Positions 41,024 to 44,582 of a DNA stretch of 64,000 nt are shown here, one piece after another (the stretch's first letter is position 1; the number at the start of each line of letters is the position of its first letter). The position numbers were made by a program, and so were the translations under genes. The notes beneath the pieces are model-generated. The model saw only the letters and a program-made list of their open reading frames with translations, was not told where the DNA came from and did no database searches. The stretch lies in assembly GCF_988242995.1 (NCBI RefSeq), contig NZ_OZ547043.1; one strand, written 5' to 3'.

Positions 41024-43615
41024 TCAGAACGACCAGACCACACCCGCCTGAGTATTCCACGGTGATTCTACCCCTGCGCCATTGCCATAACTGACTGACA
41101 AATGACCGCTTAACGTCGGGGTAAACGATGACCTTATCCCAGCCTGATAAACGCCACGGGTTCCAGCCACATCATTATTAAATTTGCCATCGTCATTAAC
41201 TTTCACCTGGTTAGAATCGGCGTATTCCTGACGCACGGCGGCTTTCAGCCAGGGTTCCAGCGTCGTACCGTTTTGCAGGTCCATGTGATAGCTTACCGCC
41301 GTTCCCGCTTCAGCGCGTAATATCCGGGTATTTCCCACATCCGCGCGCATGCCGTTTGATAACGTGTAGTCCTGACCATCTGTGGTAAAGCCGGTAAAGG
41401 CCAGATAGGGTCTAACACTCCACAATCCGTCAACCCAACGGAACCCGCTCTCAACATGAGCACCCGCGCCGTTACTATTGTAATCGCCAAACGCTGTTGC
41501 CCCATTACTCATCTTGCCATGGATGGTGTTGGCAAAACGGTCAACTTTCACCACCCCATCAACATAGGCACCGTTCTGATGCTCCCAACCGGCATAAGCC
41601 CCCAGGGTGTAGCTATCGACATTGCCTTTGCCGCCGCGATCAAAACCAATATCAGAATGAGAGTAACCAAAGAACAAGCCGCGAATTGTACTGCTTTCTT
41701 CACGGGAGAAACGGCTATCGATACCGAGCGTCAGCCCCGTCAATGTTTGCTCAAAGCCAGCTCCCGCATCAGTGGTCACGTTGTTGCGGGTGTTAATTGC
41801 CGAACTCCACATCGCCGTATCGTAATTAACGCCTTTTACGCTACCAAGACGCTCACGCACGGTGTCCAGTTCTGCATCAAATACCAGCGGTTGTGCTGCC
41901 GCCATATTCAGCATATCAGTGGTTGAAGGGGTAATTTGCGCGCGATTCTCTGCGAGGCTCCAGCTATGGTTGCCATTATCCAGCAAGGTATATTCATACG
42001 TACCGATATCAACAACGCCTCCGGCATTGCCCAACGTAAATGCAGCATCACCGCCGCCCGTTGTTACCAGTGTAAGGCTATCACCTGCTGCCGGGCTGGC
42101 ACCGGTGTCCGTAACGAATATTTTGAAATCACCTGTTGCCTGACCGGTGACGTTGAGCTGATCGCTCTGATGATTAGCCATATCGGTACGCATATAAAAA
42201 TTGCCGTTTCCCGATAGGGTATTGGTGGTCAACGTAGTGAAATTTTCCGCACTTGCCGTCACAGATGAACGAGTCACTGGCTCAGCCATCATAATCACAT
42301 TTGCGCCAGACATCGCAAGGTTGGCTAAGTTGAGGCGAGTGTTTTGGTTCGTCGTAGTGATATCGGCAATGATGGTCCATGCGCTATTTTCGAGCGAAAC
42401 ATCCGCTTTGCTGGTATCCACGGCTCCATGCGTTCTAAAAGAAGCGCCCTCAGAAACCACTACCTTACCCACCAACATAGCGGGTGCATAATTTATTTGC
42501 GGCTTCATGACCTCAAGAATGCCATCATTCCCTCTGACTGAAACGTTAACCATCGTGCCAGCCCAGACATTAGCGCGGCCATTGTTGATAACCATATTTT
42601 CAGAGATGGCTTTAGAGGAATACGTTATACTTCCATTCTGATCTGATCGACCGAGATCATATACCGCATTTGCCTGCACTCTCGTACCAGTATCCTTTCC
42701 CAGCGATTGCATAGTGGCATGCTCATCAAGGATAGTGTCAATGGCCTGCGTGTCCTCCATAACAATAAGCCCGGAACCATCATCCAGCTCATAATTTTTT
42801 GACACGCCATCTTTTATACTAAATTGGCCTTTACTGTTTGTACCACTCACTTCCAGCGCATTCGTTGAGACAATTAATTTTCCGCCTGCTTTTTTATCAA
42901 CGCCAGTTGCAGTCCCGCCATCCATAACCTCCAGTAAGCCGCCACTATCCACAGTGGTATTATAAGCGAAGTCATTTTCTTCAACTCGCAAACTTCCGCC
43001 GTTTTCCAACAGCATATTATTAGCAATACCATCCTTGATATCGAACTGACCGAGACGGTTTGTTCCGAATACCTCCATGGCCCGGGTGGTTGTTTTAATC
43101 GCACCGCCTGCTTTCTGATCTACCGCAAATGCTAATCCCCCCTCTTTAACCTCCAGTAATCCTCCCTTTTCGATAGCGGCAAAGACGGTAATCCCATCTT
43201 TTTCAATAATTAAGCGCCCGCCTTTAATGGTAGTATCATTCGCTGCGCCATAAACCTGTAGCACACCATTATTGAGGGTAGTCTGGTTTGCCGCGCCACC
43301 CATTTGAACAATTTGATAACCATCATTTAATACTGAGTATTCTGCGGTGCCATTCATTTCAATGTACTGATACCCGCCGTTAATTTCAGTATTACTACTT
43401 ATACCAAATTCTTTAATATGCTGTTCTCCGCCAGGATTGATTTTCGTATTATTGGCGGTCCCATAAACCAGCTGGATATCTTTTTCCAGGACAACACCAT
43501 CAACTGTCTCACCATACTCAACTGTTGATGCCAATGCTATGGGTGAATATAACGCTGTAGCCACCAGAACAGATATTGCGGAACGACAAAGAGAAACAGA
43601 ACCAGATTGATGCAT
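41024..43615 (-). CDS. yejO: Autotransporter adhesin YejO, apparently intact
   Basis: 863-aa ORF; N-terminal signal-like segment; repetitive passenger; C-terminus ...AGVVWSF typical of autotransporter beta-barrel. Confidence 0.8.
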   Translation of the reverse strand: MHQSGSVSLCRSAISVLVATALYSPIALASTVEYGETVDGVVLEKDIQLVYGTANNTKINPGGEQHIKEFGISSNTEINGGYQYIEMNGTAEYSVLNDGYQIVQMGGAANQTTLNNGVLQVYGAANDTTIKGGRLIIEKDGITVFAAIEKGGLLEVKEGGLAFAVDQKAGGAIKTTTRAMEVFGTNRLGQFDIKDGIANNMLLENGGSLRVEENDFAYNTTVDSGGLLEVMDGGTATGVDKKAGGKLIVSTNALEVSGTNSKGQFSIKDGVSKNYELDDGSGLIVMEDTQAIDTILDEHATMQSLGKDTGTRVQANAVYDLGRSDQNGSITYSSKAISENMVINNGRANVWAGTMVNVSVRGNDGILEVMKPQINYAPAMLVGKVVVSEGASFRTHGAVDTSKADVSLENSAWTIIADITTTNQNTRLNLANLAMSGANVIMMAEPVTRSSVTASAENFTTLTTNTLSGNGNFYMRTDMANHQSDQLNVTGQATGDFKIFVTDTGASPAAGDSLTLVTTGGGDAAFTLGNAGGVVDIGTYEYTLLDNGNHSWSLAENRAQITPSTTDMLNMAAAQPLVFDAELDTVRERLGSVKGVNYDTAMWSSAINTRNNVTTDAGAGFEQTLTGLTLGIDSRFSREESSTIRGLFFGYSHSDIGFDRGGKGNVDSYTLGAYAGWEHQNGAYVDGVVKVDRFANTIHGKMSNGATAFGDYNSNGAGAHVESGFRWVDGLWSVRPYLAFTGFTTDGQDYTLSNGMRADVGNTRILRAEAGTAVSYHMDLQNGTTLEPWLKAAVRQEYADSNQVKVNDDGKFNNDVAGTRGVYQAGIRSSFTPTLSGHLSVSYGNGAGVESPWNTQAGVVWSF

Positions 43616-43934
43616 TGAGCTTTCATCCTATGAAATTAATTGCTGTTAAAAGCATTGGGTAAAGAAAATACCCATAGCTCCATACCCGGAGTCAGTTTTT
43701 AAAAACTGTTTAAAGAAATGCACAAGTATTGTGATTGATTTTTTAGTTGTTTTTCTTGATGAGAAGCTGATGCAAAATTCCGTCTTTATAATGAAAATGA
43801 TGCCAAAGCGAACGACAAGGTTGTAGTTTTCACTACATGTCCATACATAAAATGGGGTAACATTCACGTGCCTGGTAGCGTTACCAACGCTACGCTCAAA
43901 CATAATGATTCTAATAAAACCTCAGGAGACTACT

Positions 43935-44582
43935 ATGCCTGAAGCAACGCCTTTTCAGGTGATGATTGTGGATGATCATCCACTTATGCGACGCGGTGTT
44001 CGTCAGTTACTGGAGCTTGATCCTGGCTTTGAAGTGGTCGCCGAAGCGGGCGACGGCGCGAGCGCGATCGATCTGGCGAATAGACTGGATATCGACGTGA
44101 TCTTGCTGGATCTCAATATGAAAGGTATGAGTGGCCTGGATACCCTCAATGCCTTGCGCAGGGATGGCGTTACCGCGCAAATTATTATCCTGACTGTATC
44201 AGATGCCTCCAGCGATGTCTTTGCGCTGATAGACGCAGGCGCAGACGGTTATCTGTTGAAAGATAGCGACCCGGAAGTGTTGCTGGAAGCGATTCGTGCC
44301 GGAGCGAAAGGCAGCAAAGTCTTTAGCGAACGCGTCAATCAGTACTTACGTGAACGTGAAATGTTTGGCGCGGAAGAAGATCCCTTCAGCGTGCTGACGG
44401 AGCGCGAGCTGGATGTTCTGCACGAGCTGGCACAGGGGCTGTCAAATAAACAGATTGCCTCGGTGTTGAATATTTCCGAGCAGACAGTAAAAGTACACAT
44501 TCGCAATCTGCTGCGTAAACTCAATGTCCGCTCACGCGTGGCGGCCACCATTCTGTTCCTGCAACAACGCGGGGCACAATAA
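43935..44582 (+). CDS. narP: Nitrate/nitrite response regulator NarP
   Basis: Internal Met MPEATPFQVMIVDDHPLMRRG gives the recalled 215-aa protein; receiver plus LuxR-type HTH. Confidence 0.9.
   Translation: MPEATPFQVMIVDDHPLMRRGVRQLLELDPGFEVVAEAGDGASAIDLANRLDIDVILLDLNMKGMSGLDTLNALRRDGVTAQIIILTVSDASSDVFALIDAGADGYLLKDSDPEVLLEAIRAGAKGSKVFSERVNQYLREREMFGAEEDPFSVLTERELDVLHELAQGLSNKQIASVLNISEQTVKVHIRNLLRKLNVRSRVAATILFLQQRGAQ

Follow-up and report, generated by a model that had tools for sequence, protein, structure and literature searches.

The yejO locus and the neighbouring satellite island

The window, by which we mean the whole 64-kb stretch of DNA that was analysed, carries an intact yejO coding sequence between narP and a phage-satellite island (Table 1). 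An uninterrupted open reading frame of 863 amino acids had been described at this position in an earlier note on the same DNA, and the ORF list confirms it exactly. On the opposite strand, the six-frame ORF list contains only short overlapping frames of 93–156 aa. The gene is called “autotransporter YejO” by PGAP, with the same length and frame, in the genomes GMF054 and LH13-b. Beyond narP, the ORF list and annotated relatives place ccmH, dsbE, and then the remaining ccm-nap cluster. The gene order narP–yejO–tRNA-Pro–yejM is shared by the window, in which the island lies between yejO and tRNA-Pro, and by GMF054, K-12-like records, and LH13-b. Synteny and the 97.4% nucleotide identity to the IS5-free K-12 gene support the identification of this gene as yejO. 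Most genomes, GMF054 among them, have approximately 100 bp between the yejO stop codon and tRNA-Pro, which is followed by yejM. Elsewhere in the window, rplY is preceded by an L25 ribosomal-protein leader (Rfam RF03131; 28160–28185, + strand), as expected for E. coli.

Table 1. Features of the yejO region, in window coordinates.
Feature	Position	Strand	Evidence or remark
yejM	30066–31826		far side of tRNA-Pro and island from yejO
tRNA-Pro (GGG), island integration site	31901–31977	+	ARAGORN and Rfam
P4/PICI-like satellite island, 8.9 kb	31980–40924	+	junctions against GMF054 empty site; gene content
A-run/stem/T-run hairpin, bidirectional terminator-like	40932–40962	.	terminator scan; 62 nt past yejO stop
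yejO coding sequence, intact	41024–43615	-	863 codons plus stop, ATG start; ORF list
Predicted beta-barrel translocator, aa 602–863, ending in ...VVWSF beta-signal	41027–41812	-	Pfam PF03797, TIGR01414
Codon 568, Met here, Val in seven other alleles	41912–41914	-	allele comparison; passenger–barrel linker
Pertactin-like domain, C-terminal end of passenger, aa 431–555	41951–42325	-	Pfam PF03212
Predicted passenger beta-helix, AIDA-type repeats, aa ~48–295	42731–43474	-	Pfam, NCBIfam, and PDB sequence matches
Predicted Sec signal peptide, codons 1–29	43529–43615	-	sequence inspection and hydropathy profile
Unoccupied TTAT target site (IS5 site of K-12)	43549–43552	-	alignment with K-12-like locus
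yejO–narP divergent intergenic region, putative PyejO	43616–43934	.	319 bp
narP	43935–44582	divergent from yejO	start from PGAP annotation of near-identical genomes

The mobile island that was said to adjoin yejO is real. It is inserted at the 3' end of tRNA-Pro (GGG), separate from yejO. Set against the empty site of GMF054, the att core is ctctcgtgccgaccaaa at 31963–31979 and ctctcgtg--gaccaaa at 40910–40924. The island encodes a tyrosine integrase, an AlpA-type regulator, Ash- and Icd-like proteins, a DUF4222 protein, a DUF927 primase-type protein, SSB, a ProQ/FinO protein, a PerC protein, and a PmgG-like head-morphogenesis protein. It is a P4/PICI-like phage satellite and not an insertion sequence (IS), and at least 80% of it is present in only 52 of 5,426 complete E. 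coli genomes.

Several further observations concern the island itself. A C4 antisense RNA (Rfam RF01695, 76 bits; 34388–34475, + strand) overlaps the Ash-family ORF (34110–34706) and immediately precedes the Icd-like ORF, an arrangement within the satellite that resembles a P1/P7-style c4-icd-ant immunity module. The last ORF (40088–40684, + strand, 198 aa), a “hypothetical protein” in RefSeq, matches PHROG 1114, “PmgG-like head morphogenesis”, at 9e-60, and its product may hinder or hijack helper-phage capsid assembly. Pfam returned no match for the two small ORFs of 69 and 198 aa, and PADLOC no defence-system match among the cargo ORFs. Two non-coding stretches of the island, at 37365–37496 and 39658–39721, contain short repeats built on CTTGTCCCACC / GGGACAAGTTA, in direct and inverted copies, which may function as iterons or in regulation.

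This tRNA-Pro is a hotspot of integration. The exact yejO allele of the window occurs in three settings: beside the island, beside an empty site, and beside a different element that carries Terminase_2, AlpA, a Y1 transposase, and a group II intron maturase. For this reason we rejected a tie between the island and the state of yejO. Such a linkage is also countered by LH13-b, in which a 99.9% identical island lies beside a different, K-12-type yejO allele, 97.4% identical to that of the window. The terminator-like hairpin lies between the right end of the island and yejO, and its sequence is also found at the empty site of GMF054; with this hairpin retained there, yejO and its terminator are both untouched. 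The island probably integrated at tRNA-Pro independently, downstream of the yejO terminator, and leaves the gene unaltered.

Domain architecture and predicted export of YejO

Matches to Pfam, NCBIfam, and PDB sequences mark the predicted protein as a classical (type Va) autotransporter that is complete and belongs with the AIDA-I-like adhesins, with three Pfam families spanning it from end to end. The domain check proposed in the earlier note thus recovered both the beta-barrel and the pertactin-like passenger. The N-terminus, MHQSGSVSLCRSAISVLVATALYSPIALA followed by STVEYG, had been described as signal-peptide-like, and its inspection agrees: a basic R11 is followed by a hydrophobic core at residues ~12–26 and an A-L-A motif, after which cleavage is predicted, before S30.

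The N-terminal part of the passenger consists of AIDA-type repeats and includes an internal repeat of ~74 aa. Pfam PF16168 (AIDA) scores 171.7 bits (3.2e-51), and the NCBIfam model of the heptosylation-target strand-loop-strand repeat, TIGR04415, exceeds its cut-off of 30 with 66.5 bits, over three stretches; YejO thus contains the repeats that are expected of a glycosylated SAAT adhesin of the AIDA-I/TibA type. In the PDB sequence search, residues 48–295 match Ag43 (4kh3, 1.7e-29), and the N-terminal passenger also matches Ag43 7koh and TibA 4q1q, with Ag43 and TibA matches ranging from 1e-27 to 4e-37. Toward the C-terminal end of the passenger, Pfam PF03212 (Pertactin) scores 152.2 bits (7.5e-45), and pertactin itself (1dab) is matched at 5.1e-18.

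The C-terminus, for which a canonical autotransporter ending had been noted, reads ...AGVVWSF, with a terminal aromatic residue as in a beta-signal for BAM. The Pfam Autotransporter beta-domain (PF03797) covers residues 602–841 at 2.5e-45 (155.6 bits, cut-off 26), and the NCBIfam autotransporter barrel domain, TIGR01414, scores 373 bits (1.7e-111, cut-off 16). Among PDB sequences, Vag8 (7akv) aligns with residues 384–862, that is, with the C-terminal passenger and the barrel (4.2e-36), and the BrkA barrel (3qq2) matches residues 582–863 (5.8e-19).

YejO shares the type Va architecture, the AIDA-type strand-loop-strand repeats, and the predicted beta-helix passenger with the self-associating autotransporter adhesins Ag43, AIDA-I, and TibA. 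Nevertheless, it falls far under the equivalog cut-offs of the first two, reaching 133.4 bits for Ag43/Cah (NF033177) and 77.4 bits for AIDA-I (NF033176), with 1200 bits required in each case, and these scores led us to reject YejO as an orthologue of Ag43 or AIDA-I. Compared with these adhesins, its passenger is shorter and its gene has no adjoining heptosyltransferase gene; neither a heptosyltransferase of the aah/tibC type nor a glycosyltransferase was found beside yejO, whose neighbours are narP, the terminator, the island, and tRNA-Pro. With pertactin, BrkA, and Vag8 of Bordetella, YejO shares the pertactin-like C-terminal passenger, the linker, and the predicted 12-stranded barrel, whereas the N-terminal passenger and the biology differ, and the similarity is limited to the level of domains.

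By analogy with this family, the 29-residue signal peptide would direct the precursor to Sec. The last ~260 residues would form a 12-stranded outer-membrane barrel, inserted by BAM, and probably TAM, and recognized through the terminal ...VVWSF signal. A linker helix (residues ~556–600) would fill the barrel pore, while the passenger of ~525 residues would be threaded outward, its right-handed beta-helix folding from the pertactin-like C-terminal end. The AIDA-repeat beta-helix would remain at the cell surface, where it would probably serve in adhesion or aggregation. Its display there is thus a prediction from the family, as are the adhesin role and each step of the secretion route, from Sec and BAM/TAM to threading and beta-helix folding.

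The IS5 lesion of K-12 and the state of yejO across E. coli

As stated in the earlier note, yejO of K-12 is a pseudogene disrupted by IS5. The K-12 gene is reported to carry this element (PMC11005336), and in K-12-like records an “IS5-like element IS5 family transposase” divides the yejO match, with the gene flagged as a pseudogene whose N-terminus is missing. Alignment and junction parsing of one K-12-like locus (L002) placed the 1,195-bp IS5 after nucleotide 67 of the ORF, in codon 23 and within the signal peptide, bordered by a TTAT duplication. Once IS5 and a single TTAT copy are excised, the frame is again a clean 863 codons, which makes IS5 the sole lesion of K-12 yejO. With both removed, the K-12 gene (b2190), at the same locus, shows 97.4% nucleotide identity and 25 amino acid differences over the 863 codons; it differs from the window in being interrupted by an IS5 oriented like the gene (PMC11677980), which the window lacks.

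In the window, the sequence ...GCGTTATATTCACCC... is continuous across the IS5 site and contains no insert, so the alignment with the K-12 junctions reads through uninterrupted and the gene is not of the K-12 yejO::IS5 type. The statement that no IS lies nearby was likewise upheld: no IS5 terminal repeat was found in the whole 64-kb window with three mismatches allowed. Accordingly, we rejected an IS hidden in the gene. In the nearly identical region of LH13-b, no transposase is annotated within 4 kb. We also compared the gene with full-length homologues for a frameshift or truncation, either of which would have contradicted the earlier reading, and found none, the gene having 863 codons as in seven other alleles. 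The K-12 state is best described as a lineage-specific lesion, an IS5 in the signal-peptide codons, that the window strain probably never acquired.

An intact frame could in principle be an assembly artefact, for example through the collapse of an IS copy out of the sequence. Apart from the general possibility that exists for repeats in short-read assemblies, nothing points to this, and the target site is read through with neither a duplication nor a scar, the identical protein is found on 75 independent contigs, and the window contains no IS5 end anywhere. We regard the chance of such an artefact as practically negligible.

Megablast searches detected yejO in 5,421 of 5,426 complete E. coli genomes, always on the chromosome. 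The K-12 yejO/IS5 junction, scored as present when at least 80% of a 160-nt probe across it was covered, occurs in 357 of the 5,426 genomes (6.6%), and a 160-nt probe across the uninterrupted target site found that site in 5,015. To determine the state of the whole gene, we drew two evenly spaced samples of 40 and 60 records down the full-gene megablast ranking. A single-piece yejO of exact length was present in 24 and 38 of them, respectively, i.e., in 62 of 100 (~60%), a count based on length and single-piece alignment that nonsense point mutations would escape. A full-length, uninterrupted yejO is the majority state in E. coli, and K-12 is the exception. The earlier note had implied that an intact yejO is noteworthy, and these counts do not support this implication.

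The other sampled records revealed many independent lesions of yejO, the K-12 IS5 among them. IS3-family insertions were seen in two records (H146 and H150), and one record (H154) carries an extra base. Single-nucleotide indels occur in strain 10205 (nucleotide 421) and in an O111:H8 genome (nucleotide 2270), both annotated as frameshifted. A 222-bp in-frame deletion, spanning codons 168–242, drops one copy of the ~74-aa internal repeat; it is present in ~5% of the sampled genomes, where the gene is still annotated as open. Genomes of the ST131 type have lost roughly 1.7 kb of yejO, leaving 30–36% of the gene, annotated as a pseudogene, in agreement with the reported absence of yejO from ST131 (PMC5654935). 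In some niches at least, E. coli can therefore do without the gene.

Selection on yejO and its expression

The yejO of the window has 97.2–99.96% nucleotide identity to seven other alleles over all 863 codons. Its top RefSeq match, in GMF054, is displayed by BLAST as 100.0% identical, the actual difference being one nucleotide and one amino acid. The encoded protein (WP_123004980.1) is the product of the same gene, with the same length and domain order, and V568M, caused by the nucleotide at 41914, is all that separates the two. The YejO of LH13-b (WP_000554226.1), a K-12-type allele, also has the same length and domain order and is 25 residues apart. The exact protein of the window (P0003) is found on 75 public contigs, and its 90%-identity cluster comprises 16,859 members; in both cases, the name given is “autotransporter YejO”. 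Among the eight full-length alleles, dN/dS (Nei-Gojobori) is 0.09–0.29, in the passenger and in the barrel alike, which indicates that yejO is under purifying selection and is not a relic. The open frame, together with purifying selection, suggests that YejO is likely a functional protein.

A functional protein could nonetheless have been lost recently through a subtle lesion that does not show in the ORF, with the lineage-specific V568M, in the pore-spanning linker, as one candidate. Among the eight alleles compared, methionine at codon 568 is found only in that of the window, and yejO has been repeatedly inactivated in other lineages. On the other hand, the replacement of valine by methionine is conservative, all YejO domains score at full length, and the allele is established, being found on 75 contigs in differing contexts. 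The presence of the exact protein on so many contigs also shows that V568M is not a sequencing error. Since the change is conservative and recurs on these public contigs, it is probably neutral, even though it is specific to this lineage and lies in a linker expected inside the pore, and we consider a recent loss of function by such a lesion very improbable.

A weightier alternative is that the ORF is intact and yet cryptic, i.e., that in most or even all conditions it is not transcribed, for instance because a nucleoid protein silences its AT-rich 5' region, and that no YejO is made. Among the autotransporter adhesins of E. coli, several are not expressed in laboratory culture. A simple scan of 40800–44000 found no match to the sigma-70 consensus in the 319-bp yejO–narP region. 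The 5' part of yejO and the sequence upstream of it have a GC content of 0.41–0.45, the most AT-rich of the neighbourhood, whereas the flanking ccm genes reach 0.55; such AT-richness is typical of surface-protein genes that are silenced. Over 335 aligned bases upstream of the start codon, only 2 SNPs separate the window from K-12, so the promoter is probably the same as that of K-12, namely the weak or uncharacterised “PyejO” named in PMC11677980. Across the 3,376 K-12 RNA-seq data sets of one compendium, yejO stands in 4,501st place of the ordering listed, near the bottom (PMC10392735).

These K-12 expression data, however, derive from a gene that is interrupted. The dN/dS values of 0.09–0.29 across alleles further argue that the protein is selected for, and hence that it must be made under some conditions. 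The papers found on yejO together with H-NS concern IS transposition only, and we found no paper that ties H-NS specifically to the silencing of yejO. Weighing both sides, we put the odds that yejO is cryptic at somewhat below even. A functional study of YejO as an autotransporter or adhesin was not found in the searchable literature, and in most of the papers found a K-12 delta-yejO strain serves as a proxy for the wild type. The yejO–narP region is also filled by an 85-aa ORF (43646–43903, - strand), which is unannotated in the RefSeq records examined and probably spurious.

The island offers a further conceivable influence on expression. It lies 100 bp from the 3' end of yejO, all of its genes run in that direction, and they include those for the PerC-family transcriptional activator (38575–38859) and the ProQ/FinO RNA chaperone (38219–38578). 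The island might thus switch on a silent yejO in trans, or damp the gene by antisense read-through. We judge either effect highly improbable; if it were true, display of YejO would depend on carriage of the satellite.

Overall, the reading we favour, with a probability of about 0.9, is that the window carries an ordinary, ancestral-type intact allele of an E. coli core-locus gene encoding a classical type Va autotransporter. Intact yejO is already known and already annotated, and it is the common state of the gene. With thousands of similar alleles in public genomes, the window offers nothing beyond them as far as yejO is concerned. K-12, in turn, is an atypical reference for this gene, which in most E. 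coli is open and under selective constraint.
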